Source of the DNA: a virus | Lineage: Duplodnaviria > Caudoviricetes | Strand: one strand, 5' to 3' | DNA length: 55,994 nt | Virus record (IMG/VR): IMGVR_UViG_3300025543_000030 | Location: 1-55,994 of that record | Shown here: positions 3,253-24,966 of the stretch, piece by piece | Layout of the letters: every line of letters begins with the position of its first letter | How positions within the stretch are numbered: position 1 is the stretch's first letter | Made by a program: the position numbers and the translations under genes | The notes under the pieces: model-generated | Seen by the model: only the letters and a program-made list of their open reading frames with translations | What the model was told of the DNA's origin: nothing | Database searches by the model: none

Positions 3253-3255
3253 ATT

Positions 3256-3342
3256 GGCCGGCTATTCACTTATGTGTGTGTAGCATTATCTCCAGTGGTT
3301 CTCGACACCACATACACACCTAATTAAGCTACTCGTCCGGCC
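3256..3342 (-). ncRNA. putative rod-shaped structured RNA with bulged-G (loop E/sarcin-ricin-type) motif
   Basis: Nested helices GGCCGG/CCGGCC, GCUUA/UAAGU, GUGUGUA/UACACAC, GUGGU/ACCAC; AGUA opposite GAA next to the second helix. Confidence 0.55.
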
Positions 3343-3346
3343 TCTT

Positions 3347-3535: not shown

Positions 3536-3540
3536 ATTAT

Positions 3541-3573
3541 TATTATCCATTAATAATCGTATTTAGTTTGTAA
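3541..3573 (-). promoter_or_regulatory. conserved bipartite motif copy 3
   Basis: TTACAAACTAAATACGA-TTATTAAT-GGATAATA, then 5 nt, then ATG. Confidence 0.75.
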
Positions 3574-3671
3574 TTAAATCGTCTATAATATTCTACTTCA
3601 AGCCTTTCCGCTTCATACTTAGTTATTTTAAGTAGTTTAATGTGCTTATGTCTTAGTTTTCTAGTCTTCAT
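3543..3671 (-). CDS. small basic hypothetical protein (42 aa)
   Basis: Hand-translated MKTRKLRHKHIKLLKITKYEAERLEVEYYRRFNYKLNTIING; fills the gap and stops inside the motif. Confidence 0.55.
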   Translation of the reverse strand: MKTRKLRHKHIKLLKITKYEAERLEVEYYRRFNYKLNTIING

Positions 3672-3861
3672 CTAATCCAGCATGTAATTTTTCTATTGTT
3701 GCTATCATTATAGCATTGTGAACATGGTTATAATCCTCGCTGTCAAGTCCTTCAAACTCTTCAACGCCATCCATTGCCCAATTTACTGCTTCATACAATG
3801 TTTCTTTGATGTGAGACACTTGAGCGTCTGCTATTTCATCTATAATTTTCATTTTACTCAT
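3661..3861 (-). CDS. acidic hypothetical protein
   Basis: ORF track, 66 aa, ATGA coupling. Confidence 0.7.
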   Translation of the reverse strand: MSKMKIIDEIADAQVSHIKETLYEAVNWAMDGVEEFEGLDSEDYNHVHNAIMIATIEKLHAGLDED

Positions 3862-4115
3862 AATATTGCTTTTTTAACTTGTTTTAAATCGTATTTTTCA
3901 TGTGAATCACGCCACATTTTGTGCATTGTGTACTTACTTGATTGAGTATACGATGTTTTACCACGTAATTTAACCTGTTTGTACTCGCGATCGGTAAATG
4001 GTTGGCATTCACCGTGCACTTTGTTAAGCTCATAGTGTTGAAAACTACGTTGTTTACGCTTGTTTTTAACATATTGCTTTAGTTCTTGCATATTTCTACA
4101 CATATATTCTATCAT
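3858..4115 (-). CDS. basic hypothetical protein (start uncertain)
   Basis: ORF track, 85 aa. Confidence 0.65.
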   Translation of the reverse strand: MIEYMCRNMQELKQYVKNKRKQRSFQHYELNKVHGECQPFTDREYKQVKLRGKTSYTQSSKYTMHKMWRDSHEKYDLKQVKKAIL

Positions 4116-4242
4116 TTATGCGATAAAACGAAGTGTAATTTGTATACTCTATGTTTTGATGTAGTGGAGTAAGCACTTGGTAACCTTTGTCTGTTTCTAA
4201 CAGAACATTACCTGTTTCTTGATTGAATTTGATTTGTTTCAT
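4096..4242 (-). CDS. small hypothetical protein (48 aa)
   Basis: Hand-translated MKQIKFNQETGNVLLETDKGYQVLTPLHQNIEYTNYTSFYRINDRIYV; ATG lies 7 nt after the motif. Confidence 0.65.
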   Translation of the reverse strand: MKQIKFNQETGNVLLETDKGYQVLTPLHQNIEYTNYTSFYRINDRIYV

Positions 4243-4249
4243 ATACTTA

Positions 4250-4282
4250 TATTATCCATTAGTTTTCGTATTTAGTTTGTAA
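4250..4282 (-). promoter_or_regulatory. conserved bipartite motif copy 4
   Basis: TTACAAACTAAATACGA-AAACTAAT-GGATAATA. Confidence 0.75.
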
Positions 4283-4695
4283 TTTCTTATGTAGAAGTCT
4301 AACATAAATTTCATGCGAGCTAAAGTGTTCCAGATTTTAGTTCTAGTGTAACCATTGTAGATATATGTTTTAAGTGTACCTTCATCAGTTAGAAACATTT
4401 GTCTTTGCTCTCTTTTATAAACTGGATTTAGTTGATAGTTAGATGAGCAAGAGTTTACATTTCTTACATAACCTGATTTATACACTGCTAATCTTAGTTT
4501 TATTTTAGAGGCAAATCTCTCACCTTTTAAATGGAAATATCTTGATGGTACAGGAAATTCAAATTCTCTTGTGCCATTTATTGCTTGTCTTTGTGTGGTT
4601 ACTTCTTTGATATTATGCTCTATTAATAGTCTTCTAGCAAAAGAATCCTCGAGCATTTGATTTTCTTGTTGCCAAGTGTATTTATTTGTACTCAT
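4252..4695 (-). CDS. hypothetical protein
   Basis: ORF track, 147 aa; the stop lies within the motif. Confidence 0.75.
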   Translation of the reverse strand: MSTNKYTWQQENQMLEDSFARRLLIEHNIKEVTTQRQAINGTREFEFPVPSRYFHLKGERFASKIKLRLAVYKSGYVRNVNSCSSNYQLNPVYKREQRQMFLTDEGTLKTYIYNGYTRTKIWNTLARMKFMLDFYIRNYKLNTKTNG

Positions 4696-4909
4696 TGTAA
4701 TAAGGTTTAGTATAGTTAGTATTAAAGTTAATTGATTTAGCTACATTTTGTCGCCATTGCCACTCACGCTTGCGATACTCATAGCTTTGACACCATTTTT
4801 TCACAGCAGTAACTTGTGGTATTTCACCGTATTTTGCTTCATAGTCAAGACATTGTTGTAACTTTGCTTTGATTTCTGACGCTGGATAGTCTTTAAATTT
4901 TGTATTCAT
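4682..4909 (-). CDS. hypothetical protein; start revised to 4909
   Basis: MNTKFKDY... ATG lies 5 nt after the motif. Confidence 0.7.
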   Translation of the reverse strand: MNTKFKDYPASEIKAKLQQCLDYEAKYGEIPQVTAVKKWCQSYEYRKREWQWRQNVAKSINFNTNYTKPYYNEYK

Positions 4910-4914
4910 ACTAG

Positions 4915-4947
4915 TATTATCCATTAGTAGTCGTATTTAGTTTGTGA
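4915..4947 (-). promoter_or_regulatory. conserved bipartite motif copy 5
   Basis: TCACAAACTAAATACGA-CTACTAAT-GGATAATA, then 5 nt, then ATG. Confidence 0.75.
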
Positions 4948-10014: not shown

Positions 10015-10023
10015 CAATAAAAT

Positions 10024-13000
10024 ATGGCAAATTTATCTAATATAAATAATAAATTCATCGTAGAAGATAGCGGAGATGTTGGTATTGGTGTAACTACTGC
10101 TAACACTAAACTTCATATAGGTGGTACTGCACCTGGTGATTCTATTATTCGTCAAGATTCTACAGTATCAGGTACAAACTGGGAAATTGGAGAAAGAGCA
10201 GCTGGTAAATGGCAAATATTTGAAGATGATGGTGACACTATTGTTACTACCTTTATGTCTACCGGAAACGTAGGAATCGGGGTAACAAACCCGTCAAGTT
10301 ATTGGGCAAATGCAAATAATTTAGTAGTAGGAGGTTTAGGAGCTGTTAGTGGAATTACAATAGCAACGGATGGTAACTTAACAGGTTCTTTAATTTTTGC
10401 CGATAGTACAGCAGCTGCAGATAATACAAGAGGTGGTTTACAATATAACCATAGTAATGATAGTATGTTATTTAGAGTTGATAATGAAGAAAGATTTCGT
10501 ATAGATGACGTCGGAAGTGTATATAATAGTGCATCATCAGGATCAGTAACTAAATATGGTTTTAACGCTTTAAATGGTACTAGTTTTACTGGTGACGAAA
10601 GCTCTGCTTTTGGTACCAATGCTTTAGGATCTTCTACAACTGGTAGAAACCATGCATTTGGTTTTAGAGCTCTTCAAGATTTAACAACAGGTATTTATAA
10701 CACAGCTGTTGGTGGAGAGTGTTTAGAAAATAATATTGATGGAAATGCTAACACGGCTGTTGGCGCTTTTGCAATGAGAGTTTTAACCACTGGTGATAAT
10801 AACACTGCTATTGGACGTCATGCTTTATATAATAATAATAATAGTTATAACGTAGGGGTTGGTTATTATGCTGGTACAGCTATAACTGACGGCTCAAGGA
10901 ATGTTGCTGTAGGAGCTCAGTCAATGGAAAATGGAAGTGGCGTTACTGGAGACGATAACGTAGGGCTTGGTCATTATACTTTAAATTCTGTGACAAGTGG
11001 TCATTCCAATACAATGGTTGGAAACTATGCTGGAGATTTAATTACCACTGGTATTAACAATGTTGGTTTAGGTTATAAAGCGCTTTCTGCAATATCAACT
11101 CAAAGCAATAATGTTGCTATAGGTAGAACAGCTATGCAAACCGCTCTTGCTGAAAATTGTGTAGCTATAGGTAATGACTGTTTAGAAACTACAACTGGAT
11201 CTGATAATACAGCTGTTGGAGCTTTTGCAGGAAGAGCAGTTAGTTCGGGTATCAGTAACACTTTAATAGGTTCTAGAGCAGGTTATGATGTAACAACAGG
11301 TAGTTACAATACTTTAGTTGGAAGAGCAGCAGGTCAAAGTATTGTTAGTGGTGAACGAAACACGGGTATGGGTTATGCTGCATTAAATGGTAATACCGGT
11401 AGTTATAATACTGGTATCGGTATGGAAACTTTAAACGGTGATACCCATAGTTATAATACAGCCTTGGGTTATGAAGCTGGTAGAGATAATAATGGTCAAG
11501 AAAATACATACGTAGGTTATTTCGCTGGTAGATTATCAACAGGTGGCAACGAATGTACATTTGTAGGTTCGCATGCAGGTTATAATAACGCAAATAGTGA
11601 TAATACAGCTGTTGGTCGATATGCTTTGTTTCAAAACACGGTAGCTTTTAATACGGCTTTTGGCCACCAAGCTGGTTACGGGGTTACAACTGGTAATTTT
11701 AACACTTTTGTTGGAGAAAGAACTGGGGGATCAATAGGGGCTGGAGCAGGAAATGTTGGAGTTGGTAGAAGATCATTATATAAAGCAACAAGTAGTAATA
11801 ACACTTGTGTTGGTATGCAAGCTGGATATGGAATAACCTCTGGTGATAATAATATAGCTATTGGTAATGGTGCTATGGAAGTAGCATTAACAACAGGTGA
11901 TGACAATGTAGTCGTGGGAACGAGTGCGGGTACAAACTTAACAAGTGGTAACAAGAACGTGGTTATAGGTAATTCTGCGGGATATGCTATAACAACTTCG
12001 GTTAATACTGTTGCTGTTGGTCATGAAGCATTAAAAGCATTGGTTGACGGGGCCCATAACGTAGCTGTAGGTGCATTTGCTTTACACGATGTAACAAGTG
12101 GAGGAGTTAATGTAGCTATGGGTTTAGCAGCTGGTTCTCATATAACAACTGGAAGCCATAACACTTGTTTAGGTTATGATTCTTTTCAAGCTGTAGTTGG
12201 TGCAGGTTATAATACTGGTGTAGGTTCAAGCACTGGTGTTTATCAAACTGGTAATTACAATACAGCGGTAGGTTATTTTTCTCAATATGGTGTTAGTGGT
12301 AGTTCAAGTGGAAGTTATAACACAACTAGTGGATACTTTGCAGGAGCATATAACAGAGGGGAAAATAATACATTTTTAGGCGCTCTTGCCGGTAGATTTA
12401 ATTCAACAGGTGATAGAAACACAATTGTTGGATCCCAAGCTGCAGATAACGCTGCTATAACTGGTAGTGATAACACTTCTTTAGGTTTTGGAAGTGCACA
12501 TAATATAGCAAGTGCATCTAACAATGTATATCTAGGTGCAAATGCTGGTTTTATAAATAGCGGCTCAGAAGGGAATGTTGCTATAGGATCTTCAGCTTTA
12601 TATTCCGGTACAGGAGGTGGAAATATTGCTATAGGTAAAACCGCTATGCAATCTGCAACATCAGCTTCAAGTAATATAGCTATTGGTTATGCAGCTGTAG
12701 GAGGTGCCGCAGCGACGGGCTCTGCTAATATTATAATAGGTGATGCTGCTGGTTACAACCTTACAAGCGGTTCAAATAACATTTTAATAGGGCAAAATGC
12801 GGGTAGAACAGGTTCAAACAACCCAGGTCAATTAGGTTCAGTTGTTACAGTTAGTAATGAAATACAAATGGGTAATACTAGTCATCAAGGGGCTTTTATT
12901 CAAATTGGTTGGACTACTGTTTCTGATGCAAGGGATAAGGGGCAAATTAAAGATCTGCCTTATGGATTAGATTTTATAAATCAATTACAGCCAAAATCAT

Positions 13001-13239
13001 TTGAATTTAAACCAGATAGAAATTCAGAAGAAACTGATGGAATCGAAAGATATGGATTTTTAGCTCAAGATGTTTTAGAAATAGAGGGAGAAAGTCCTGT
13101 TGTAGTAAATAAAAATGATGAAGATAAATTGAAAATGACTAATGATTATTTAGTGCCAATATTGGTAAATGCAATACAAGAATTAAAAGCAGACAACGAT
13201 AGCTTAAAAGCTAGAATAGAAACGTTAGAAAATAATTAA
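10024..13239 (+). CDS. tail fibre/spike with tandem beta-roll repeats and C-terminal intramolecular chaperone (peptidase S74-like)
   Basis: Dozens of ~14-aa N(T/V)(A/G)(V/I/L)G..A repeats; SDARDKGQIKDL..GL..INQLQPK.F, GFLAQDV and LVNAIQEL coiled coil. Confidence 0.88.
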   Translation: MANLSNINNKFIVEDSGDVGIGVTTANTKLHIGGTAPGDSIIRQDSTVSGTNWEIGERAAGKWQIFEDDGDTIVTTFMSTGNVGIGVTNPSSYWANANNLVVGGLGAVSGITIATDGNLTGSLIFADSTAAADNTRGGLQYNHSNDSMLFRVDNEERFRIDDVGSVYNSASSGSVTKYGFNALNGTSFTGDESSAFGTNALGSSTTGRNHAFGFRALQDLTTGIYNTAVGGECLENNIDGNANTAVGAFAMRVLTTGDNNTAIGRHALYNNNNSYNVGVGYYAGTAITDGSRNVAVGAQSMENGSGVTGDDNVGLGHYTLNSVTSGHSNTMVGNYAGDLITTGINNVGLGYKALSAISTQSNNVAIGRTAMQTALAENCVAIGNDCLETTTGSDNTAVGAFAGRAVSSGISNTLIGSRAGYDVTTGSYNTLVGRAAGQSIVSGERNTGMGYAALNGNTGSYNTGIGMETLNGDTHSYNTALGYEAGRDNNGQENTYVGYFAGRLSTGGNECTFVGSHAGYNNANSDNTAVGRYALFQNTVAFNTAFGHQAGYGVTTGNFNTFVGERTGGSIGAGAGNVGVGRRSLYKATSSNNTCVGMQAGYGITSGDNNIAIGNGAMEVALTTGDDNVVVGTSAGTNLTSGNKNVVIGNSAGYAITTSVNTVAVGHEALKALVDGAHNVAVGAFALHDVTSGGVNVAMGLAAGSHITTGSHNTCLGYDSFQAVVGAGYNTGVGSSTGVYQTGNYNTAVGYFSQYGVSGSSSGSYNTTSGYFAGAYNRGENNTFLGALAGRFNSTGDRNTIVGSQAADNAAITGSDNTSLGFGSAHNIASASNNVYLGANAGFINSGSEGNVAIGSSALYSGTGGGNIAIGKTAMQSATSASSNIAIGYAAVGGAAATGSANIIIGDAAGYNLTSGSNNILIGQNAGRTGSNNPGQLGSVVTVSNEIQMGNTSHQGAFIQIGWTTVSDARDKGQIKDLPYGLDFINQLQPKSFEFKPDRNSEETDGIERYGFLAQDVLEIEGESPVVVNKNDEDKLKMTNDYLVPILVNAIQELKADNDSLKARIETLENN

Positions 13240-13240
13240 T

Positions 13241-15676
13241 ATGGCGTCATTATCCAATATAAACGGATTATTTGACGTTCACTCTACAGGAGCTATACTA
13301 TTTAGTACATCTCATGGAACTAGTGGACAGATATTAAAATCAAACGGTAATGCAGCCCCAACTTGGGTTGACGCTTCAACTGTTATTGGTGGTCCTTATT
13401 TGCCTTTATCTGGTGGAACACTTACTGGCAATTTAGATATTAATGGTAGTAATAGTTTAACTGTTGGTGGAGTTTTAAATGGTACTAGTGCAACTTTTTC
13501 AGGATTAGTAAGTGGTATAACACCTACTGCTGCTGCAAATTTTGCAACTAAAGCTTATGTTGATGCTCAGCCTCAAGGTGATTTAACATCAATAACCTTA
13601 GGCAATGGTTTAACTGGATCAAATTTAAGTGGACCTATACCTGATGTATTAATGTCTGGTTCTTATACTGGAACTTTTACAGCAACAAGTTTAGCTTCAG
13701 ATTCATTTTTAAACAACGCGGGTAATTTATTATTTTCAGCAGGAAACACAACAACTGGAGCGTCTAGATCTTTAAATTTAAGAACTATTAGCCCTACTAA
13801 TGATCCATCGTCTGTTGATATAACTGATGCAACAGGTATTACATGGGGGCAAAGAACTGATAGTCAGCCATACTATATAATATATCCAAAAAAAGAAAAC
13901 TGGAATTCAAGTGGTAATTATTCTAAATTAACTTTGGCTTGGCACACAGGTATAAAAATAGGTGCAAATGATGCTTATGGTGGTACAAGATTTTATGATG
14001 ATTCACCTGATATTTCAGGTGCTGCAGTAATATTAAATGTTGGTGTTGGTAACACAAATGTTGGTGTTGTAAATGCTTTAACCGTGGGAACAACAATTAA
14101 TGCTGGTGGAGACATTAAAACAACAGGTGCGGCAATAGGAACCACTCAAGCTGATGGTGATTATTTATCTAAATTATATAGTTCAGCTTCTGATGGGTAC
14201 ATGGCATTATACACAGGACAAGCAACACCTATAGAACAAGTTAGAATTAGTTCTTACGGCCCAAGTTATATTGTTACAGGTACTTCAGGAGGTTTTGGAC
14301 TTGGTAGTTCTGTTACAACTGGAGGTTTTAATGTTAACTGGACTTTTGCAGGAAGTTATTACAATATGAGTAATAATGATTCTGGTAATTTTAAATATAC
14401 AAATCCAAACGGTAGGTTGCTTACTTCTAATGGAACTGGATGGGTTGCAGATGGTAGAGATCCGATTTTAACTTTATCTAGCGCAGGAAATGGTGGAGCC
14501 ACTACAGTGGGTTATTCTGTAGGTTTAAATCTTTACAGTAATACAGCTACAAACAACACTTATTCACCTTTAATATGTTTTAGTAATCTTTCTAATTCAG
14601 GTAATTATGCAACTGCCTATGCGGCAATTGGTGGTAAAAAAGTAGGGGCAGGTACAGATAGTAATTGGTCAACTGGAGAATTACATTTTTGGACAGCAGG
14701 TCCTACGGGATCAGGTTCAGCTTCATACATGCAACAAGCATCAGCTATGATGATAGACGATGCTGGCAAAGTCGGGATCGGGACGAATACACCTGCTGAA
14801 AAATTAGAGGTAGCCGGGAATATTAGAATGTTTAGTGCAGGTTATCCATTAATTGATATGGGTATCACAACCTCTAACTACTTTAGACTAATTCACGATA
14901 ATCCTAATGACGTATTTAAGATTGGAAAAAATGGAGCAGGAACTTTAAACATTACAGGAAGTGGCAACGTAGGGATTGGTAATTCACCAGCCTCTGATGC
15001 TAAACTTGAAGTTTGGAATGGTAATTTAAGGGTAAGAGGTGATCAAAACGCTGTTATACAATTAACTAACGTAGCTGGTAATACAAAGTCTCAATTAGGT
15101 AATGCTGGTAACGAAGGTGATTTATCTTTATATACTTCTGGAAATATTAAAACAGTTTATTTAAGTTCTTATTACGATAGTTATATAAATCCAGCTGGCG
15201 GCAGCGTCGGGATCGGGACTGATTCGCCTAGTGGACCATTTCACGTTAAAGTTGGTACAAGTACTCCACTTATTGTAGCAAGTAGTAGTTATTGTAATAA
15301 TGTAGGTATAAGAACCACAACACCAACCGCAAGTCTTCAGGTTAAAGGTAACGTTTCTTATAGTTATAATAATTACACTAATGTAGCAACTACTTGGGTA
15401 AATGTCTTTAATATGGCAAGTTACCCTACCGGTTTGTATCAGGTTAGCATTATTAAAAAGACAAATGCTTCTGCTTATATAACAGCTATAATAAAATGGG
15501 ATGCAACAGCTTCAGCTTCTACAGCAGGAACTATTGTTAATACTATAACATCAAATCAATTAGGTGTAAGTTTTAATGGCTCAACTACACTACAGTCTAT
15601 ATCAGCTCTTGCAACTGGAACTCTTATGTCAGCAAACTTACAATGTTTAGTAACAAATGAAGATTTTTGTAGTTAG
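13241..15676 (+). CDS. tail fibre protein
   Basis: YLPLSGGTLTG and ATKAYVD motifs; several G.VGIG repeats. Confidence 0.82.
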   Translation: MASLSNINGLFDVHSTGAILFSTSHGTSGQILKSNGNAAPTWVDASTVIGGPYLPLSGGTLTGNLDINGSNSLTVGGVLNGTSATFSGLVSGITPTAAANFATKAYVDAQPQGDLTSITLGNGLTGSNLSGPIPDVLMSGSYTGTFTATSLASDSFLNNAGNLLFSAGNTTTGASRSLNLRTISPTNDPSSVDITDATGITWGQRTDSQPYYIIYPKKENWNSSGNYSKLTLAWHTGIKIGANDAYGGTRFYDDSPDISGAAVILNVGVGNTNVGVVNALTVGTTINAGGDIKTTGAAIGTTQADGDYLSKLYSSASDGYMALYTGQATPIEQVRISSYGPSYIVTGTSGGFGLGSSVTTGGFNVNWTFAGSYYNMSNNDSGNFKYTNPNGRLLTSNGTGWVADGRDPILTLSSAGNGGATTVGYSVGLNLYSNTATNNTYSPLICFSNLSNSGNYATAYAAIGGKKVGAGTDSNWSTGELHFWTAGPTGSGSASYMQQASAMMIDDAGKVGIGTNTPAEKLEVAGNIRMFSAGYPLIDMGITTSNYFRLIHDNPNDVFKIGKNGAGTLNITGSGNVGIGNSPASDAKLEVWNGNLRVRGDQNAVIQLTNVAGNTKSQLGNAGNEGDLSLYTSGNIKTVYLSSYYDSYINPAGGSVGIGTDSPSGPFHVKVGTSTPLIVASSSYCNNVGIRTTTPTASLQVKGNVSYSYNNYTNVATTWVNVFNMASYPTGLYQVSIIKKTNASAYITAIIKWDATASASTAGTIVNTITSNQLGVSFNGSTTLQSISALATGTLMSANLQCLVTNEDFCS

Positions 15677-15730
15677 CAGGTACTATACAAGAATTACAAA
15701 AAAGAATAGAAATATTAGAAAATAAATAAT

Positions 15731-18421
15731 ATGGCATTATTAACAAATATAAATGGTAAATTCAGCGTTAGTGACGCAGGTGCAGTAACTTTTAATAATG
15801 CATTTACTTTTCCAACTACAGATGGTACTGCTAATTATGTGTTAAAAACAAATGGTAGTGGGCAGTTAGCTTGGGCAGCAGATAATTATGAAAACTATGA
15901 TTATTGGACTTTACAAGGTGATTCTGCTGCTAATGTGAATATAAATTCTACTAACACATTAAAATTTATTGGAGGAACATATATAGATACTTCAGCAACT
16001 TGGGCGGGTGGATCTAACCCTAGAAAATTAACAATTAATCACGAAACTACAAGTAGAACTGACACAACCTCTACGGATGCACCAGCATTCGGTGGAACTT
16101 TTGAAGCTGTGACTAGTGTTACAACTAACACAACAGGGCATGTTACAGCTATAGATGTTTCAACAATAACTATACCAACTGATCCAGGTGGAACTGTAAA
16201 AGGAACTGGTACCGCAACAAGAGTAGCTTTTTGGTCAGCAAGTGATACTATAACTAGTGATGCTGATTTATATTGGGATAACACAAATAAAAGATTAGGG
16301 ATCGGGACAACTTCACCTAGTGCAACTCTTAATATTAAAAGCTTAAATAGTTCAAATTCTGATTCTTTATCTGATGTAATTACAAATTCAGAGTTTAAAT
16401 TACAATATAGAGCCGACGATTTATCTTCAATGTATCTTGGTGGCCTAGGAAGTGAAAGAGGATATTTACAATCTATAAATAATGCTGAAAACGCTGGTAC
16501 ATCATTTTCTTTAAATCCTTATGGAGGCAACGTAGGAATCGGAACGACTTCGCCCGCAACTAAATTAAACATTAGAAGTGACGCATCTGATGATGGTATT
16601 TTATTAGAAAAATCTGATGGTACAGATATAGCTAGATTATTTTACGATGGCACTTCTACTAATGCACGACTTGATATGTTTAGTGGTGGTTCAGCCACAA
16701 TACAATTAAAAGCAAATGGAATTACACATTTTTCAGGAGGAAACGTCGGGATCGGGGTGGCTTCAGGAATAGATGCAAACTTAAGAGTAGACGCAAACTC
16801 AGCCACCTTAACACAAGAAATATTAAAAGTAAAAGGAGGCGGAAGTGGAGGTGCTTATGGCTTTTTAGTTGAAGCAAATAATGGAGATGATTTATTTAAA
16901 GTAGATACTTTATCTTATAATTCTTATTTTACTAACGGCAACGTCGGGATCGGGACGACTGGGCCGGTAAATAAATTAGGAATAGAAGTTGCAGCAAATT
17001 CAAACACAAAAGCAATTAATATATACAGTAAAAATACAAGTCCTAATTCTTATACAAGTATTGGTTCGCAGTATTCAATTTCTAATACTTATGTTGAATC
17101 AGAAATAAGGTTTGGAAATGAAACACAAAGCGGAGGAGGTTCTTATTTAGGTTTTGTTGCAGGTGGGACAAATACTGGTAATACAGAAAAAATGCGTATT
17201 ACAAGTGGAGGTAACGTAGTAATTAATTATAACGCTACAGGTGGTGTTGTAGACCCTGTTAATAGTAAATTTACAGTTGCAACACAACCTCCTTATAATT
17301 ACGCTAACTCAAAAATTGAGCCTACAACAGCAACATTCTTTTCCGATAAAATGACTAATAATGATTATAATTCTATATTACAATTAGTGTCAGTTAGAGC
17401 TTCTTTAACATCAGGGCAAAATTCTAATGGATATTTAGGATTTTCTACACTTGATAATTCTAACGCTCAAGGTGTTATTGATGCAGGTAGAATAGCTATT
17501 GTAAACGAAAATGGTGTAGCAAGAAATTCCCCAACAGCTTTAAGTTTTTGGACTAATACCCCTAATGGAAATGTAGATAATACTCCTGCTACAGAAAAAA
17601 TGCGTATTGGCTCTTCAGGAGATGTAAAAATTACAACAAATGGCAAGTTTTTACAAGGAGTAAGAAATACTGGAAGTGCGACTATTGATATGATAGGTTT
17701 CGTTAGTGGAACAGATACATTACAAATAAAAGGCGGGACAAGTGGTGCAGCAAATGCTATTAGTTTTTATGATACTGGAGGGTTTTTAGGCACATGGTAT
17801 AACGGCAACTTTGGGATCGGGACGACTTCGCCTGGGGTTAAACTTCAAGTTCAACACGATCAAGCCGCGGAAAGTAACGTTATTTTTATGAATAACAGCA
17901 CGAGCGCAGGGGCTGCAATACGACTATCATTAAATGTAGGTAATCCAGCAGGTGATGATCCTATGATTTCATTTAACATAGGTGATGGAGGTTTAGATTG
18001 GACAATGGGTGTGGATAACTCAGATAGTGATAAATTCAAAATATCAGGAGGTACAGACAGTCATAATCCAAACTTAGGAACTAATGATCAATTAGTTATA
18101 GATAGTTCAGGTAATTTAACTATGACAGGAGATGTAATAGCTTATTCTGATAAAAAATTAAAGAAAAATATTAAAACTTTAGATGGTTCTAAGGTTTATA
18201 AAATGAGGGGTGTTAGTTTTGATAGAATTGATACAGGTAAAGCAAGTTCTGGAGTTATAGCTCAAGAAATACAAAAAATAGCACCTGAATTAATAAGTGA
18301 ATCAAATGATACATTAGGTGTTGCTTATGGAAATATCTCAGGATATTTAATTGAAGCAATAAAAGAATTAAAAGCGGAAATAGAGGAATTAAAGTCTAAC
18401 AAATGTAATTGTAATAAGTAA
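15731..18421 (+). CDS. tail fibre protein with C-terminal peptidase S74-like chaperone
   Basis: Multiple GNVGIGT..P and EKMRI repeats; AYSDKKLKKNIK, GVIAQE, LIEAIKEL. Confidence 0.88.
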   Translation: MALLTNINGKFSVSDAGAVTFNNAFTFPTTDGTANYVLKTNGSGQLAWAADNYENYDYWTLQGDSAANVNINSTNTLKFIGGTYIDTSATWAGGSNPRKLTINHETTSRTDTTSTDAPAFGGTFEAVTSVTTNTTGHVTAIDVSTITIPTDPGGTVKGTGTATRVAFWSASDTITSDADLYWDNTNKRLGIGTTSPSATLNIKSLNSSNSDSLSDVITNSEFKLQYRADDLSSMYLGGLGSERGYLQSINNAENAGTSFSLNPYGGNVGIGTTSPATKLNIRSDASDDGILLEKSDGTDIARLFYDGTSTNARLDMFSGGSATIQLKANGITHFSGGNVGIGVASGIDANLRVDANSATLTQEILKVKGGGSGGAYGFLVEANNGDDLFKVDTLSYNSYFTNGNVGIGTTGPVNKLGIEVAANSNTKAINIYSKNTSPNSYTSIGSQYSISNTYVESEIRFGNETQSGGGSYLGFVAGGTNTGNTEKMRITSGGNVVINYNATGGVVDPVNSKFTVATQPPYNYANSKIEPTTATFFSDKMTNNDYNSILQLVSVRASLTSGQNSNGYLGFSTLDNSNAQGVIDAGRIAIVNENGVARNSPTALSFWTNTPNGNVDNTPATEKMRIGSSGDVKITTNGKFLQGVRNTGSATIDMIGFVSGTDTLQIKGGTSGAANAISFYDTGGFLGTWYNGNFGIGTTSPGVKLQVQHDQAAESNVIFMNNSTSAGAAIRLSLNVGNPAGDDPMISFNIGDGGLDWTMGVDNSDSDKFKISGGTDSHNPNLGTNDQLVIDSSGNLTMTGDVIAYSDKKLKKNIKTLDGSKVYKMRGVSFDRIDTGKASSGVIAQEIQKIAPELISESNDTLGVAYGNISGYLIEAIKELKAEIEELKSNKCNCNK

Positions 18422-18888
18422 TGGCAGTACCAACTTCAGGAACATTATCAATGCTAAATATAGCCCAAGAAGCTTTATACGGAACTTGGGGATCAGGAAC
18501 AATAACTGGACCAATATCCATATATGATATGATTAATGGAGGTAATAGCAATGGTTCAGGTAATTCATATCCTACGGTAAACGATGGGTGTACGCCAAAT
18601 CCTGTTGATAGGAGTTATTATCAAATTACCTTAACATTAGCTCAGTCCGGTAATGAAATAAAAACAACTGTTTTCACAACAAGAAACCCCATTACAGGGT
18701 TAGTAACAAATGATGTTTTATATGACTACGTAAATGGCTCATATACAGCTTGGACAGGAGCATCGCAAACTTATTCATATTGGATATTTGCACAAGGAAC
18801 ATTTTTTGGTTGTACATCAAGTGAGTGTCCTAACATTTCAGTTAGTTCGTCTGGGGTAGTAACTACTAACGGGTGTCTTTGCCCATAA
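18421..18888 (+). CDS. small tail-fibre-associated protein (Cys-containing)
   Basis: MAVPTSGTLSM..I..E start, which I recall from proteins following S74-type fibres; TAATG coupling. Confidence 0.65.
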   Translation: MAVPTSGTLSMLNIAQEALYGTWGSGTITGPISIYDMINGGNSNGSGNSYPTVNDGCTPNPVDRSYYQITLTLAQSGNEIKTTVFTTRNPITGLVTNDVLYDYVNGSYTAWTGASQTYSYWIFAQGTFFGCTSSECPNISVSSSGVVTTNGCLCP

Positions 18889-18898
18889 AATATAAATT

Positions 18899-19231
18899 AT
18901 GCCTATAGCTTATCCATATAGATTTTCAGATTGGTACGGTTATGATAAAGACTGTGCATCAGTAACTGGTTTTTTAGCTGGCTCTGGTCAATCAAGTAGT
19001 TCGGGAATATGTAATCAATTATCTTCGCAAACAACATATTATCACAACGGTAGCGGAACTTATCCAGTAGTAGGTGATATAGTATATACAAATTCAGCTG
19101 GAACAACACCATTAAATGGAGGTAGCGGAACTAACTGGCCTTATTTTCCATCAGGCCCTAACCCACCAGACGGCTGGTTTAGAATAACAGGAAGCACAGG
19201 AACAGTTCAATCACAAAGTAACTGTCCTTAA
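18899..19231 (+). CDS. small tail-fibre-associated protein (Cys-containing)
   Basis: FSDWYGYDKDC and TYYHNGSGTYPVVGDIVYT motifs. Confidence 0.65.
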   Translation: MPIAYPYRFSDWYGYDKDCASVTGFLAGSGQSSSSGICNQLSSQTTYYHNGSGTYPVVGDIVYTNSAGTTPLNGGSGTNWPYFPSGPNPPDGWFRITGSTGTVQSQSNCP

Positions 19232-20047: not shown

Positions 20048-21607
20048 ATGTCAAATGCAATTGTGAAAAATCTGAACTTTGGTTCAGATGCTAAAAACAA
20101 TGTGTTTGCTGGTATTACAAAACTTACACAAGCCGTTAGCTCCACTCTTGGAGCTAGTGGTAAGTGTGTTATGTTAGAAGATCAAACCGGTGAACCTATT
20201 ATTACAAAAGATGGTGTAACAGTGGCTGATGCCATTACACTTCTTGATCCTGTTGAAAACATGGGAGCAACTTTATTAAAGCAAGCTGCTAGAAAAACAG
20301 TGAGAGAAGCTGGAGACGGTACAACAACCGCAACAGTATTAGCTCATTCTATTTTAGATGAAGCTTATAAAGTTATAACAAAAGAAAACGCTAGAGATTT
20401 AAAAAAGGGTATTGAAACAGCAACTGATAAAGTTGTTGATTATTTAAACTCAATAGTTACTACAGTTAAAGACGATATGATTGATCAGGTAGCAACTATA
20501 TCTACTAATAACGACCCTGAACTTGGTAAAATTATTGCTAATGCTTTTAGATCTGTAGATGAAACTGGTGTTGTTATACTTGAAGTTTCTGATTTACCAG
20601 AAACTATATTTGAAACCATTGATGGTATACAATACGATAGAGGATTAAAAAATATACATTTTGTAACTAACAAAGAAAACAATACAGCTGAACTAGATAA
20701 ACCATTAGTATTGATAGTTGAATCAGAGGTTGAAAATGTTAGAAAAATACAAAGTGTTTTAGAGTATGCTATAAAACAAAATAGATCATTACTTATTATA
20801 GCTGATGTAGACCAACAAGTTATGTCCGCTTTAGCAATGAATAAATTAAAGGGTAATATTAAAGTTAATTTAATTGACGCTCCTGTTTACGGGGTTAATA
20901 AAAAAGAAACATTAGAAGATTTGGCTTTACTTACAGGAGCCACTGTTATAAATGAAGATCTTGGAGATGATATTGATTTAATAGGCCCTGAACACTTAGG
21001 TGAAATACAAAAAAGTGTTACAAGCCAAACAGAAACTATACTACATGTTGGTGAAGTTTGTAAAGAGGTTAAAGAAATCATTAAAGATTTAAAATCTAAA
21101 CTTAAAACAGCTAAGCACCCTGGAATAGTAGTTAATACTGAAAAAAGACTAGCTAGATTATCAGGTAAAGTTGCTGTAGTGAAAGTAGGGGCTAATTCAG
21201 AAGTTGAATTAAAAGAAAAGAAAGATAGAGTTGAAGACGCAATATGCGCAACTAAAGCTGCTATAAAAGAAGGTATTGTTCCAGGTGGTGGTATTGCATT
21301 ACTTAATGCATCACAAAAAGTTCAAACTTCTAACGCTTATGAAAACATACTTTTAAGAGCAATTAAAGCACCTTTTAAGACCATTTTAAGCAATGCAGGT
21401 ATAGTTAACCATAAAGTATCTTTAACAGAAGGAAAAGGTTTAAATGTAGTTACAGGAAATATGGTTAATATGATTGAGTCAGGGATTATTGATCCTTTAC
21501 TTGTCACAAAAAGTGCGTTAAGAAACGCGGCATCAGTAGCATCAACTATTTTATCAACCGATTGTGTAATCAATAATCTTAGAGTTAATGAAGGCAATAG
21601 GGAATAA
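20048..21607 (+). CDS. groEL: chaperonin GroEL (Cpn60)
   Basis: ITKDGVTVA, AGDGTTTATVLA, KDRVEDA..ATKAA..EGIVPGGG and GIIDP..VTKSAL.NA.S.A signatures. Confidence 0.97.
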   Translation: MSNAIVKNLNFGSDAKNNVFAGITKLTQAVSSTLGASGKCVMLEDQTGEPIITKDGVTVADAITLLDPVENMGATLLKQAARKTVREAGDGTTTATVLAHSILDEAYKVITKENARDLKKGIETATDKVVDYLNSIVTTVKDDMIDQVATISTNNDPELGKIIANAFRSVDETGVVILEVSDLPETIFETIDGIQYDRGLKNIHFVTNKENNTAELDKPLVLIVESEVENVRKIQSVLEYAIKQNRSLLIIADVDQQVMSALAMNKLKGNIKVNLIDAPVYGVNKKETLEDLALLTGATVINEDLGDDIDLIGPEHLGEIQKSVTSQTETILHVGEVCKEVKEIIKDLKSKLKTAKHPGIVVNTEKRLARLSGKVAVVKVGANSEVELKEKKDRVEDAICATKAAIKEGIVPGGGIALLNASQKVQTSNAYENILLRAIKAPFKTILSNAGIVNHKVSLTEGKGLNVVTGNMVNMIESGIIDPLLVTKSALRNAASVASTILSTDCVINNLRVNEGNRE

Positions 21608-21848
21608 TTTAATAGTAAACATGACTAAGCAAGGTGTCTCTGAAACAAAAGGAGGTCTTTTCTTAGCAGAAAAACAACGAGAGGATATAAGATACGCTGA
21701 AGGCACTGTATTATCAGCTGGAAGCAATGTTATTGGAATTAATAAAAATGATGTAATTTATTTTGATAAAAATAATTGCCATCAAATAGAAATTAATAAA
21801 GAAATATATCAAGTTGTTAATATGGCTAACGTAGTAGTTGTATTGTGA
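21588..21848 (+). CDS. groES: co-chaperonin GroES (Cpn10)
   Basis: MKAIGNNLIV, mobile loop ETKGGLFL, GTVLSAG, I..NDVIYF; 86 aa; adjacent to groEL. Confidence 0.85.
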   Translation: MKAIGNNLIVNMTKQGVSETKGGLFLAEKQREDIRYAEGTVLSAGSNVIGINKNDVIYFDKNNCHQIEINKEIYQVVNMANVVVVL

Positions 21849-22288
21849 GATTAGAAGCTAGTGACATTAGAAGTTTAAATCTTTTAAAACATTACAGAAT
21901 TATTAGAAAATGGGCCTGTAAAAATAATGATTTAAATGATGCGGATCTAGAATTACTTATATACTTCGATTGCATGGATCTTTTTAAACGAGAAGATTTT
22001 AAAATCGGTACATATTCTTATAGTTGGGATAATAGACGCTGGAACAGATTACTTAAAGAAGGTTGGATAACGGTTTGGAGAAAACACAACCGCACAACTC
22101 AAAAGTACAATATCTATAAAGTTTCCTTCAAGTGTAAACAACTAATAAGTCGAATGTACCGTATCATGCTTGGTATTGAAGATATACCGACTTCAACCTC
22201 GAGAAATAAAATAATGAAAGGCAAAACCTATATAGACAAAGTTATGATTACGTCTATAAATAATGTAAATAAAGATAAAAACCGATAA
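21845..22288 (+). CDS. hypothetical protein, possible winged-helix DNA-binding protein (GTG start)
   Basis: LNDADLELLIY...RLLKEGWI...YKVSFKCKQL pattern is MarR/wHTH-like; GTGA overlap with groES. Confidence 0.55.
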   Translation: MRLEASDIRSLNLLKHYRIIRKWACKNNDLNDADLELLIYFDCMDLFKREDFKIGTYSYSWDNRRWNRLLKEGWITVWRKHNRTTQKYNIYKVSFKCKQLISRMYRIMLGIEDIPTSTSRNKIMKGKTYIDKVMITSINNVNKDKNR

Positions 22289-22290
22289 TC

Positions 22291-22398
22291 ATGGGAAAAA
22301 AAGAAAAAAAAGTAGAAGTAAAAAAAGAAGTTTCGTCAATTGATAAAAAAATTGCTAAACTACAATTAGCTATTTCAAAATTACAAAAAAGAAAATAA
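22291..22398 (+). CDS. small Lys-rich protein (35 aa)
   Basis: Hand-translated MGKKEKKVEVKKEVSSIDKKIAKLQLAISKLQKRK; TAATG coupling. Confidence 0.6.
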   Translation: MGKKEKKVEVKKEVSSIDKKIAKLQLAISKLQKRK

Positions 22399-22793
22399 TG
22401 GCATTTTTTGGTTCAATAGCTAGTGCTCTTATAGGTGCAAAGTTATCTAAAAAGAAAACTGCTGCTAGTAGTATTGGTGGTATTCTTGGCGGAAGTCAAA
22501 CAACTTCTGACAAACCTATTGCTACAGATCACAAGCACTCAAGTGATTCATCTAAAGAAGATATACAAAATGAAGCTATTTCAGTTAGACCAGATCCAAG
22601 TTTTATGGGTAAAGGTCAAATGAAAAACTTTTCTTCATTAACAACACCTGAGAGTGTAGATAGAAGTGGTAGAGCGATTAGTTCACAAGAACTAGATCCT
22701 GTTGGTATAAAACCAGCAATGAATCCACCATTAGCTACACCAATAGATATAGATCAACAAGGAGTAAATAGTTTATACTCTGATAAATTTTAA
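22398..22793 (+). CDS. hypothetical protein
   Basis: ORF track, 131 aa, low complexity. Confidence 0.7.
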   Translation: MAFFGSIASALIGAKLSKKKTAASSIGGILGGSQTTSDKPIATDHKHSSDSSKEDIQNEAISVRPDPSFMGKGQMKNFSSLTTPESVDRSGRAISSQELDPVGIKPAMNPPLATPIDIDQQGVNSLYSDKF

Positions 22794-22796
22794 ATT

Positions 22797-23009
22797 ATGG
22801 CAAAACAACCAGGACAATTAGGACAAAATACAATATGGGACGGACCCTTATCAGAAGTAGGAAGACCTTTAGCAAAAGGTAACTCAAGATATGGTGATAA
22901 CTGTATGCAAGTATTAAAAGCTCCAACACCTTACAGCCCAGGACCAATAACTACTAAGACTTACAAAAGTCAAATGAGTCAAGGTGTCCCAGGTTTAAGT
23001 TCAAAGTAA
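22797..23009 (+). CDS. hypothetical protein
   Basis: ORF track, 70 aa. Confidence 0.7.
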   Translation: MAKQPGQLGQNTIWDGPLSEVGRPLAKGNSRYGDNCMQVLKAPTPYSPGPITTKTYKSQMSQGVPGLSSK

Positions 23010-23021
23010 AAACTCACTATA

Positions 23022-23486
23022 ATGAGTGATAGAATAAGTGAACACATCTCGCTTAAAGAAGGGATTAAATCTCACACGGCAACTAGGCTTGGTATTGACA
23101 ATACACCTAGAGAAATAGATTTAATTAACATGAAAACTATTGCAGAACAAGTGTTTGAACCTCTACGCAAATGGGTGGGTGGTCCAATCGCTATTAATAG
23201 TTTCTATCGCTCGCCCCAACTCAATTCTGCCATTGGCGGAAGTACAACCTCTCAACATTGTATTGGTTGTGCACTTGACTTAGACGATAACTATGGTCAT
23301 AAAACTAATGCAGAGATGTATGAGTATATAAAAAATAATTTAGATTTCGATCAGATTATTTGGGAATTTGGTACAGATAAAAACCCTAATTGGGTGCATG
23401 TAAGCTATGTGTCTGAAGATGCAAACAGAAGAAGATGTTTAAAAGCTTATAAAGAAAACGGTAAAACTAAATACAAAATAATATAG
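23022..23486 (+). CDS. peptidase M15 family endolysin
   Basis: INSFYRS..LN.AIGGS..SQH..G.A.D and WVHVSY zinc-ligand motifs. Confidence 0.9.
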   Translation: MSDRISEHISLKEGIKSHTATRLGIDNTPREIDLINMKTIAEQVFEPLRKWVGGPIAINSFYRSPQLNSAIGGSTTSQHCIGCALDLDDNYGHKTNAEMYEYIKNNLDFDQIIWEFGTDKNPNWVHVSYVSEDANRRRCLKAYKENGKTKYKII

Positions 23487-23488
23487 TT

Positions 23489-23689
23489 ATGTTAAATTCA
23501 CCATTATTAAAAAAATATTGTGGCGGACCATCAAAAAAATCACACGGTCCTGTTAAAAGTAGAAAAGGAAAAAGAGTATCTTGGAAATATGGAAAAGGCA
23601 CTTATTCAGGAACTTGTATAAACGATAGCTGCAGTAGAGCTAGAACTGAAAATGGAAAAATTAAAATACTACCTAAAAACAGAAAGTAA
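23489..23689 (+). CDS. small basic protein, possible SH3/Tudor-like fold
   Basis: KGKRVSWKYGKGTYSG pattern; 66 aa. Confidence 0.55.
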   Translation: MLNSPLLKKYCGGPSKKSHGPVKSRKGKRVSWKYGKGTYSGTCINDSCSRARTENGKIKILPKNRK

Positions 23690-23692
23690 ATT

Positions 23693-23992
23693 ATGGCTTA
23701 TAAAGTAGAAGGTCCAGCTATAAAAGAAAAAGCTTACGAAAAACAAAATCGTAAAATGCGATCTGACTATACTAAAGAAACTGGTAAAAAATTAGGTAGT
23801 AGACAAACGTCTGGTACTGGTGCTAGAAGAGTTTCTTTTGCTTGTAGATTTGCTGGTATGAAAGGAGCAATGAAAGGTGCTAATGGTGAGCCAACTAGAA
23901 AAGCTATGGCTTTAAAAAAATGGGGATTTGGTAGTGTTGAAGCTGCTAGAAACTTTTGTAATAAAAATAAAAATAAAAAAAATAAAAAATGA
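23693..23992 (+). CDS. basic conserved phage protein (RRxSFxxR...ALKKW family, DUF6321-like)
   Basis: RRVSFACRFAGMKG...PTRKAMALKKWG motif. Confidence 0.65.
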   Translation: MAYKVEGPAIKEKAYEKQNRKMRSDYTKETGKKLGSRQTSGTGARRVSFACRFAGMKGAMKGANGEPTRKAMALKKWGFGSVEAARNFCNKNKNKKNKK

Positions 23993-24729
23993 TTAGAAAT
24001 TATTACACAGAATCTTACAAGAGTGGAGTTGTTCCTGTTGTAAGCGCAACTCAATTAATTGATGGTACGGTTAAAGTAATACAATCGACAACAGCAACTT
24101 CTGTTGTTAATGCTGTTCCTTCTGTTACTTTAGTTTTAACTTTAAATAGAAATATTCAAGTGGGTATGTATATAACATGTCCTACAATGAATCCAGTTAT
24201 AGGTATTAACGATCATCTTATGGTGGCTCGTGTTGTACACGATACAAACACAACTGTAACTTTAAATAAATCAGTTGTAATGCAAGCTGGTCAAACACTT
24301 ACATTTTTTAGTATAAATCAAGGAAGTTGGAGTGAATATAATTTGTTTGTAGGTACATCACCTGGAGCTGATGGCTCAACTATTACTACTAATAACAACA
24401 ACGTATCAACAAACACAGCTTTAGTTTTAAAATCACCTAATACTTTAATTCAAGCAGGTATGAACGTGGGTGGTGTAGGTGTTCCTGCTGGTACTAAAGT
24501 TGCAACTGTAACTAATTCATCTAACTTTATATTAGATCAAGCTGTTAATATTGCAGCAGATATACAATTAGTTTACAGTTTTGATGTATTACCTAGTATA
24601 TCAGTTTTAACAGCTGATAATGAAACAATAACATTTACTAATCCTGCTCAAGGATTTGTATTACCAGTTTCTGTTGTTCAAATAACAGGTGTTGCTGGAG
24701 GTATATCAAACTTGGTGGCATTAAATTAA
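23989..24729 (+). CDS. probable structural protein with two internal beta repeats
   Basis: IQVGMYIT and IQAGMNVGGVGVPAGTKV repeats; V/T-rich. Confidence 0.6.
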   Translation: MIRNYYTESYKSGVVPVVSATQLIDGTVKVIQSTTATSVVNAVPSVTLVLTLNRNIQVGMYITCPTMNPVIGINDHLMVARVVHDTNTTVTLNKSVVMQAGQTLTFFSINQGSWSEYNLFVGTSPGADGSTITTNNNNVSTNTALVLKSPNTLIQAGMNVGGVGVPAGTKVATVTNSSNFILDQAVNIAADIQLVYSFDVLPSISVLTADNETITFTNPAQGFVLPVSVVQITGVAGGISNLVALN

Positions 24730-24739
24730 AAAATAAATT

Positions 24740-24958
24740 ATGGATACAAAAATAACTAAAGGTAACGCAAAAGATGCTATCAAAGATGACAAAGCTCACA
24801 TAGATTATTTAAAAAGAGATGTTTTAGATGATCAAAAAAAAGGAGGCAAATATAAAGATATTAACCAAACAGCTGATGAAAAACATATATCAAAATTAGC
24901 TGGAGACATTAGACACGATCATACTTTCTTGTCTAAACATATGCAACACAATAAATAA
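24740..24958 (+). CDS. hypothetical protein (Asp/His/Lys-rich)
   Basis: Two repeats: DDKAHIDYLKRD and ADEKHISKLAGD. Confidence 0.7.
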   Translation: MDTKITKGNAKDAIKDDKAHIDYLKRDVLDDQKKGGKYKDINQTADEKHISKLAGDIRHDHTFLSKHMQHNK

Positions 24959-24966
24959 AAAAAATT

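Follow-up and report, generated by a model that had tools for sequence, protein, structure and literature searches.

What a short run of rare, G+C-rich codons is doing inside the tail-fibre genes of an A+T-rich phage, and whether it marks the places where fibre modules are exchanged, is the question raised by the IMG/VR virus record IMGVR_UViG_3300025543_000030. The window analysed here is the whole of that record, 55,994 bases at ~33% G+C and rated 87% complete. Three consecutive fibre genes on its + strand carry ten copies of a GNVGIGTTSP-type peptide, and a first reading of the sequence (the original prediction) proposed that the DNA encoding this peptide is a codon-biased repeat under selection as nucleic acid, which could serve as a recombination site for exchanging fibre modules or as a programmed ribosome pause. 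In this work we confirm that the codon-biased repeated motif at the joints of the fibre modules is real. A position-specific and linked nucleotide bias is present at the module starts, and natural exchange points coincide with it within a few bases, from which we infer that short homology guides the exchange. The reading that we prefer, at a probability of roughly 0.58, is that the 30-nucleotide word encoding the joint acts as a microhomology linker for the shuffling of fibre modules and is itself homogenised by recombination.

A codon-biased word in three fibre genes

The motif is defined in frame as G-x-[VFL]-G-I-G, with the usual continuation T-T-S-P-x-x-K-L, and all of its copies are direct repeats on a single strand (Table 1). 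It opens each module; from one motif to the next, modules run to 66-79 residues and share 17-29% identity as protein, with G-I-G alone invariant. The nine sites listed in the original prediction all proved to be in-frame copies of this motif in the three fibre open reading frames (ORFs), at the positions given except for 16292, which lies one codon off register (aligned start 16289); the copy at 14963 reads GGG ATT GGT. A further copy, at 10072, is written in ordinary codons (GGA GAT GTT GGT ATT GGT), as had been stated. Six copies share the exact 9-mer GGGATCGGG, at 14774, 15209, 16298, 16748, 16946 and 17813, all on the + strand of fibre genes 2 and 3. This 9-mer is found nowhere else in the genome, and shuffled sequences contain it 0.02 times on average, with none of 100 shuffles reaching six. 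Two other copies (10264 and 16526) carry GGAATCGG, again in agreement with the original prediction.

The codons that make up the word are rare in this genome, each supplying 3-9% of the codons for its amino acid in genes other than the fibres (GGG 0.048, GGC 0.085, GTC 0.035, ATC 0.056, ACG 0.065 and TCG 0.029), and the G+C content at third codon positions (GC3) is 0.159 in the fibres vs 0.171 in the rest of the genome. With expected counts taken from the window's own codon usage and matched by amino acid, the ten copies, each of ten codons, have G or C in the third position of 53 codons out of 100, where 13.0 would be expected (exact P 1.3e-22; none of 200,000 Monte Carlo draws reaches 53). 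Restricting the count to fibre genes 2 and 3 gives 48 of 80 vs 10.3 expected. The significance of the bias, on which the original prediction depended, is therefore borne out. The same holds for the second point on which it had staked itself, namely that the DNA around the copies should not be equally similar: genes 2 and 3 hold eight copies, which make 28 pairs, and in these the 30-nucleotide motif is 69% identical, whereas the 60 nucleotides upstream and the 60 nucleotides downstream each show 33% identity, compared with 31% for in-frame 60-mers drawn at random from those genes. Flank identity at the random level excludes plain recent duplication.

To follow the word through related phages, we used the GroEL gene, 2 kb downstream of the fibres, as a query. 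From the 251 relatives that it retrieved among viral contigs we retained 80 loci, which together with the window form a family set of 81 sequences. The motif occurs 152 times in 37 of the 81, and 118 copies are left after dereplication, in which copies with alike flanks were merged and those from related contigs are still partly dependent. Their consensus is GGM AAC GTM GGR ATY GGR ACG ACT TCG CCT, and the codon chosen differs from one position to the next. The first glycine is GGC in 29 copies and GGG in 9, and asparagine is AAC in 60 of 73. Valine is GTC in 41, GTA in 44 and GTG in 1 of 96 (background of GTC 0.03). The glycines around isoleucine are GGG in 39 and GGA in 49 of 118 (background of GGG 0.06), with GGC in 2-3, and the isoleucine itself is ATC in 54 of 118 (background 0.03). 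For the first threonine ACG is used in 55 of 82 copies (background 0.06) and ACC in 1, followed by ACT (46 of 61), TCG (35 of 62, background 0.03) and CCT (70 of 91). Since GC3 in the flanks is 0.155, the word stands out as a 30-nucleotide GC island.

The third positions of the word are also linked to one another. Copies with either 0-1 or 6-8 G/C-ending codons out of eight number 58, vs 9.9 under independence, so that G+C-rich (GC-type) and A-rich (AT-type) versions behave as haplotypes. Flank GC3 is 0.17 and 0.15 for GC-type words vs 0.20 and 0.14 for AT-type words. Word type sorts by contig, the observed spread being reached in none of 5000 permutations, and the highest values are seen in the clade closest to the window (GroEL 92-95% identical). 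Conservation at the nucleotide level thus exceeds what the protein needs, in the window (P 1.3e-22) and across the 118 dereplicated family copies, where codon choice is position-specific and third positions are linked. The constraint on nucleic acid that the original prediction had deduced from synonymous sites is upheld.

Mosaic junctions and their genomic setting

If modules are exchanged at the word, boundaries between related and unrelated sequence should fall on it, and this is what we observed. All-against-all megablast alignments of at least 85% identity gave 141 qualifying ends, which reduce to 106 distinct module edges. A motif is found within 6 nucleotides of 34 edges (mean 15.1 and maximum 28 in 2000 randomisations within the same ORFs) and within 15 nucleotides of 45 (mean 20.9, maximum 35), with just 7 more at a distance of 16-60 nucleotides. 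The other half lie elsewhere, many of them where the conserved N-terminal adaptors of the fibre genes end. These adaptors (10016-10062, 13204-13500 and 15685-15879; the first 50-270 nucleotides) are 80-95% identical to relatives, with unrelated sequence downstream, and their ends are a second class of mosaic boundary that explains many of the edges away from the motif. Copy 10072 lies 10 nucleotides past such an adaptor, relatives matching 10016-10062 at 91-95% and then diverging.

A test confined to the strict motif gave a sharper picture. Here 128 copies in 123 clusters were compared through ungapped flanks, a junction being a copy with a partner at least 80% identical on one flank and not on the other. 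Junctions were found in 44 clusters and collinearity only in 1, and 78 were without a partner, so that 44 of the 45 informative clusters are junctions; control sites shifted by -105 and +105 nucleotides yielded none, with 8 and 13 collinear clusters, respectively. Mosaic breakpoints, which the original prediction expected to fall in the motif, therefore do coincide with it, and since none fell on the shifted sites in the family, its reading of the word as a site of module exchange is supported. The exchange points are also narrowly placed, 28 of 30 distinct junction pairs switching between -10 and +39 of the first base of the word. Where the downstream module is shared (22 pairs), third-position identity across the word runs 0.65, 0.74 and 0.76, and where the upstream module is shared (8 pairs) it runs 0.83, 0.62 and 0.53, compared with a baseline of 0.39, 0.37 and 0.45 in unrelated word pairs. 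Identity thus decays away from the shared side and is still above baseline on the far side.

Examples are present in the window itself. At copy 16937, two relatives (L282 and L255) are 24% and 39% identical over the 90 nucleotides upstream and 93% and 94% identical over the 120 nucleotides downstream, and at copy 15200, with the switch at 15203, two others (L270 and L262) are 38% identical over 90 nucleotides upstream and 93% over 120 downstream. At 17210-17218 the window has half a motif. The module upstream of it is common to the window, L282 and L255; the latter two have the motif complete and then run into two further, different modules, so that this is a three-way junction within the word. 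On a larger scale, in four relatives (L262, L271, L278 and L253) the C-terminal module of fibre gene 2 (window 15203-15675) abuts the backbone from 19229, and between the two neither fibre gene 3 nor the genes at 18421-19228 have a match, which indicates that whole fibre cassettes also come and go.

Similar patterns extend, more weakly, beyond the family; apart from the GenBank search, the counts that follow in this paragraph were made among the matches listed. A scan for any coding of G-N-V-G-I-G-T gave 223 copies in the 120 contigs listed, or 200 copies at 110 loci once the family is removed. Non-family ORFs with GC3 of 0.25-0.45 have 403 G/C-ending codons vs 239.8 expected (of 693), and those at 0.45 and above have 137 vs 112.2 (of 203). 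In the former bin the individual preferences recur, with ACG at 52 vs 14.1 expected and ACC at 5 vs 17.5, GGG for the last glycine at 43 vs 11.4, and GGC for the first at 65 vs 24.6. In contigs unrelated to the family, the junction test gave 26 junctions vs 10 collinear copies, and the shifted controls 2 vs 12 and 0 vs 14. Bacterial and archaeal assemblies (109 loci in many phyla) show a weaker excess, which is gone in their GC-rich ORFs (motif GC3 0.79 vs 0.77 for the ORF). The peptide occurs there at loci L337-L456, often several times per locus, in Patescibacteria groups, Planctomycetota, Omnitrophota, Bdellovibrionota and Bacteroidota, and also in some archaeal assemblies (Methanosarcinales, Nanoarchaeota). 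A 33-nucleotide query against GenBank hit 42 records, 4 of them plausible fibres (uncultured Caudoviricetes, two Synechococcus phages and one Parabacteroides phage); the others were rejected as chance matches in GC-rich actinophages. No cultured phage with the word was found. The nearest isolates belong to Elemovirus, and in the first 33 kb of one Elemovirus record the sole annotated tail-fibre gene is short and putative (249 amino acids).

Table 1. Fibre genes, motif copies and half motifs in the window (aa, amino acids; G/C-ending, codons ending in G or C)
Feature	Position	Strand	Description
Fibre gene 1	10024..13239	+	1071 aa; two motif copies near N-terminus
GDVGIGVTTA	10072..10101	+	ordinary codons, 0/10 G/C-ending
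GNVGIGVTNP	10264..10293	+	5/10 G/C-ending; carries GGAATCGG
Fibre gene 2	13241..15676	+	811 aa; three motif copies in C-terminal third
GKVGIGTNTP	14765..14794	+	6/10 G/C-ending; carries GGGATCGGG
GNVGIGNSPA	14963..14992	+	4/10 G/C-ending
GSVGIGTDSP	15200..15229	+	7/10 G/C-ending; carries GGGATCGGG; mosaic junction
Fibre gene 3	15731..18421	+	896 aa; five motif copies and two half motifs
KRLGIGTTSP	16289..16318	+	3/10 G/C-ending; carries GGGATCGGG
GNVGIGTTSP	16526..16555	+	6/10 G/C-ending; GGA ATC GGA version; carries GGAATCGG
GNVGIGVASG	16739..16768	+	6/10 G/C-ending; carries GGGATCGGG
GNVGIGTTGP	16937..16966	+	9/10 G/C-ending; carries GGGATCGGG; mosaic junction
Half motif G-N-V	17210..17218	+	GGT AAC GTA, then unrelated sequence
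Half motif G-D-V	17621..17629	+	follows E-K-M-R-I-G-S-S; then K-I-T-T-N-G, not G-I-G-T-T-S-P
GNFGIGTTSP	17804..17833	+	7/10 G/C-ending; carries GGGATCGGG

Fibre gene 1 has a different repeat, S-Y-N-x-G-[IV]-G, at 10855, 11413, 11758 and 12217 (345-560 nucleotides apart), mostly in ordinary codons, and a box E-[RK]-M-R-I stands ahead of many motif copies (17189-17200 and 17597-17608 in the window; positions -8 to -4 in the family). The second arginine of this box is CGT in 19 of 25 family cases, CGT making up 24 of 388 arginine codons window-wide, and the box may be a second codon-locked word; within the window, ATGCGTAT is not over-represented (3 matches vs 1.3 expected).

Two of the three fibre genes have domain and family matches. 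Fibre gene 1 ends in a Peptidase_S74 chaperone (PF13884, E 1.4e-10, residues 967-1020) and matches a PHROG tail spike family (E 6.8e-98); fibre gene 3 also has a C-terminal Peptidase_S74 domain (PF13884, E 1.2e-8) and matches 14 PHROG tail or tail-fibre families. Fibre gene 2 has no PF13884 domain and no match in Pfam, PHROG or NCBIfam. At the nucleotide level the fibre region has no match among GenBank phages, and in viral contigs fibre protein 3 has only distant, partial matches. Structure was of little help: a PDB sequence search with the fibre gave a weak match confined to the C-terminal chaperone region (E 0.031), ESM Atlas neighbours are all unnamed, and a four-module single-sequence AlphaFold2 model has a mean pLDDT of 38.8, too low for use.

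Elsewhere the window encodes terminase, portal and virion proteins, GroEL, GroES-like proteins and a DNA ligase. By terminase (TerL) comparison the closest cultured phages are Elemovirus Flavobacterium phages and Cellulophaga phages, at 44.5% identity, and the public runs in which the fibre region occurs carry freshwater or aquatic metagenome labels. The group to which this phage belongs is one of Elemovirus-like podophages of freshwater, with Flavobacteriia as probable hosts. GroEL (20048-21607, PHROG E 1.4e-136), the adjoining Cpn10 (21588-21845) and a second GroES-like gene (28034-28639) are common to Elemovirus Flavobacterium phages. A 2370-residue ORF at the end of the virion module (47383-54495) is without a Pfam or PHROG match, and the sole tRNA gene of the window, tRNA-Gln (anticodon TTG; 2068-2141, minus strand), lies among early genes.

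A proposed microhomology linker and its alternatives

In the linker reading, the word GGC AAC GTC GGG ATC GGG ACG ACT TCG CCT encodes the conserved joint GNVGIGTTSP that opens each shaft module of ~70 residues, and it is the sole nucleotide likeness between otherwise unrelated modules and the place at which phages have exchanged them. Exchange would likely proceed by single-strand annealing or template switching in lytic replication. The crossovers would fall inside the word, so that recombination would both use the word and spread it, and such spreading would homogenise synonymous sites across the non-homologous modules of one gene pool. Homogenisation of this kind would account for three features: the linkage among third positions, a word type that goes with lineage and a codon choice that varies by position. 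As for the G+C richness, it could give stabler annealing in a 33% G+C genome or could be a by-product of GC-biased heteroduplex repair, and the outcome would be a combinatorial diversification of receptor-binding fibres.

The agent would most plausibly be the ERF annealase of the family together with a PDDEXK nuclease, with host functions helping or replacing them. An ERF annealase (PF04404) is encoded in all five relatives rated at least 94% complete, and in the one relative examined for its neighbourhood (G001) it adjoins a PDDEXK (DUF3799) nuclease gene. An Elemovirus record likewise has an annotated ERF protein next to a 5'-3' exonuclease. The five near-complete relatives have neither RecT nor AAA_24. 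According to De Paepe et al. 2014 (PMC3945230), an Erf/Exo pair recombined identical and 22%-diverged DNA 20- and 100-fold better, respectively, than the RecA pathway, and Rad52-like recombinases drive mosaicism via short homology. The original prediction had stated that no recombinase is visible. This stands for the window, an 87% complete record in which none was found, ERF included, and does not hold for the near-complete relatives: window 132-4924 is collinear with 21419-26442 of G001, whose ERF gene lies at 18557-18964, so that in this phage the gene is expected ~2.4 kb beyond the left end of the window.

Several observations weigh against the linker reading, beginning with that very absence of ERF from the window, which leaves its presence in this phage predicted from synteny, and with the lack of an ERF match in five fragmentary relatives (57-85% complete). 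Exact in-register identity between pairs of words in the window runs for 5-16 nucleotides (median 11), and runs of this length are below the need of RecA-type recombination. Junctions are as frequent at AT-type words (18 of 18 informative) and intermediate words (7 of 7) as at GC-type words (19 of 20), which means that the G+C-rich codons are not needed for a junction; they may be a cause or a consequence of the exchange, and the support for the recombination-site claim of the original prediction does not extend to a need for them. An apparent excess of junctions at GC-type words (p = 0.04) was distorted by a portal-gene match to G-I-G and vanishes with the strict motif; the same match marred a comparison of synonymous divergence between word and flank in collinear pairs. 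The exact 17-mer of the word is carried by at least 120 viral contigs, including some of 50-72% G+C, and among the matches listed 44 of the 56 holders below 40% G+C belong to the window's family, so the strong GC lock is mostly a family trait. In keeping with this, the G/C excess in unrelated, very A+T-rich ORFs is small (GC3 under 0.25, among the matches listed: 102 vs 89.4 expected, of 504). Assembled public contigs revealed no recombination in progress, deletion or duplication within the genome included, and give an ambiguous picture that we count on neither side: among the loose ends listed, 8 of 24 fall on motif copies, and there are several joints between two copies, the sides being 20-24 nucleotides long, such that other phages sharing just the word would look alike. 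Finally, junctions at a module joint could be the residue of selection for foldable chimeras after random breakage.

This last point is the core of the main rival to the linker reading, according to which the motif is a structural joint only, breaks fall at random, selection retains the chimeras joined at boundaries, and the G+C-rich third positions are passive (for example, through GC-biased heteroduplex repair) or unrelated. The word as DNA would then do nothing to steer exchange. The equal share of junctions at AT-type and GC-type copies fits this account, as does the position of the motif at the opening of each module, of which it is the only invariant part. The loss of the G/C excess in GC-rich ORFs of bacterial and archaeal assemblies is likewise what a GC-favouring process predicts. 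We nevertheless consider it unlikely, for four reasons. The junctions keep an exact register relative to the word, and two of those in the window halve the motif and lose G-I-G (17210 and 17621), which indicates that the intact peptide is not always kept. Plain GC bias leaves ACT, CCT and the choice of ACG over ACC (55 vs 1 of 82) unexplained. Lastly, words on the unshared side of a junction resemble each other more than random pairs do (0.65 and 0.53 vs 0.39 and 0.45).

The second proposal of the original prediction was programmed ribosome pausing for co-translational trimer folding; in the form considered here, rare codons clustered where a module begins would slow translation and leave time for folding during synthesis or for trimer registration. 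GGG, GTC, ATC, ACG and TCG each contribute 3-6% of their amino acid's codons and sit where each module begins. Equally rare synonyms are not interchangeable, however, ACG being used in place of ACC, GTC in place of GTG, and GGC or GGG according to which glycine is encoded (29 vs 9 at the first, 2-3 vs 39 at the later ones). Among the matches listed, the same codons are favoured where they are not rare (ORF GC3 0.25-0.65), and GC-rich genomes show no shift to A/T-ending codons, which are the rare ones there. Glutamine is the one amino acid for which the window has a tRNA gene. We regard programmed pausing as improbable and have set it aside.

A conserved RNA or DNA structure, or a protein-binding regulatory site, is suggested by the CGTC...GACG ends around GATC and by the tandem TCGGGA, and three of six copies fold better than their shuffles (z -2.7 to -3.7). 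The six folds differ from one another, the other three have z between -0.03 and +1.3, RNAalifold places no pairs in 48 GC-type copies, and GGGATCGGG is confined to the fibre genes, all of which makes this very improbable. GATC itself is over-represented across the window (161 sites vs 96 expected; none of 100 shuffles reaches 161), and GATC-specific readings such as methylation or restriction were set aside on this account. There is similarly little to be said for the G+C-rich words as leftovers of recent duplication or of import from GC-richer phages. The occurrence of the exact 17-mer in viral contigs of 50-72% G+C would suit import, but such an origin calls for G+C-rich or alignable flanks, and neither was found, the flanks of the copies being at random identity, those of GC-type and AT-type words equally low in GC3, and the fibres no richer than the rest of the genome. 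Least credible is a target of a shufflon- or Gin/Cin-type invertase, a tyrosine recombinase or a diversity-generating retroelement, of which short repeats inside fibre genes are a hallmark, given that all copies are direct and on one strand, that their flanks are unrelated (which argues against a retroelement), and that Phage_integrase (PF00589), Resolvase (PF00239) and RVT_1 were found neither in the five near-complete relatives nor in the window.

A stronger form of the linker reading would have the word actively maintained as a recombination adaptor, a sub-genic Botstein linker. The modules with the common version would be those that ERF-type annealases can move, and the word would thereby spread as a driven element through non-homologous modules and phage lineages. 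We put this forward only tentatively, as a possibility against which the odds are still weighted. Were it true, the fibres of an entire uncultured aquatic phage guild would amount to a single combinatorial library built on a shared connector, and the G+C richness of the word would be tuned for annealing in A+T-rich genomes.

Comparison with known systems

Exchange through conserved connectors was proposed decades ago, for Botstein linkers and T-even motifs, and clear cases at the sequence level are few. In the adhesins of T-even phages, exchanges take place in or near conserved motifs, the His boxes of gp37 and the glycine-rich motifs of gp38 (Tetart et al. 1996, 1998, as cited in Trojet et al. 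2011, PMC3157838). There, short conserved motifs alternate with hypervariable fibre segments; in our phages, too, a repeated motif separates variable segments and natural junctions coincide with it. The peptide motif, the phage group and the fibre architecture are different, and the evidence here is comparative only.

Botstein and Campbell linkers, and the PeSL cassettes of T4-type phages, are conserved DNA that flanks exchangeable modules (Arbiol et al. 2010, PMC2839356). These linkers direct exchange to suitable places, as is proposed here for the word, and are common to different phages, as the word may be. They lie, however, between genes or groups of genes and are regulatory or non-coding, whereas the word is coding, in frame, at the scale of a domain and ~30 nucleotides long. 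With regard to enzymes, ERF in all five near-complete relatives, with PDDEXK beside it in G001, recalls the pairs of Red-beta, RecT or Erf with an exonuclease. The assays of De Paepe et al. (PMC3945230) relied on hundreds of bases of homology, compared with 30 nucleotides and exact runs of 5-16 here, and a role for ERF at the word would be an extrapolation from them.

The signature of the word is a G+C-rich island with locked synonymous codons and linked third positions in an A+T-rich genome, which may set it apart from the T-even motifs. In phages of Streptococcus thermophilus, collagen-like repeats flank the variable region of the host-specificity gene and have been proposed as recombination hot spots. 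There, as here, a glycine-rich coding repeat brackets exchangeable receptor-binding segments; the repeat is a simple Gly-X-Y, as opposed to a unique joint of ten residues, and we know of no claim of a GC-rich codon lock in it. Mu Gin, P1 Cin, shufflons and diversity-generating retroelements diversify the C-termini of fibres or adhesins via short intragenic repeats as well. Those systems depend on a recombinase or reverse transcriptase of their own, and on repeats that are inverted or serve as templates; neither such an enzyme nor such repeats are found here. In the literature within reach, which left out subscription journals and supplements, we did not find this peptide named in a phage context, and titles and abstracts yielded nothing on a codon-locked word at fibre junctions.

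The principle is thus old, and we rate as new the motif with its G+C-island signature, the statistics from counting junctions in uncultured aquatic phages, and a candidate enzyme. The signature is simple and countable, a 30-nucleotide G+C island with locked codons, and is accompanied by junction statistics in the family and, more weakly, beyond it. It offers a way to divide unannotated fibre genes into exchangeable modules and singles out a likely enzyme, the ERF annealase in combination with a PDDEXK nuclease. Whether short coding homology steers the evolution of host range or simply persists through it can be tested directly on the word, which also suggests a natural splice point for module swaps in laboratory phage-host pairs.

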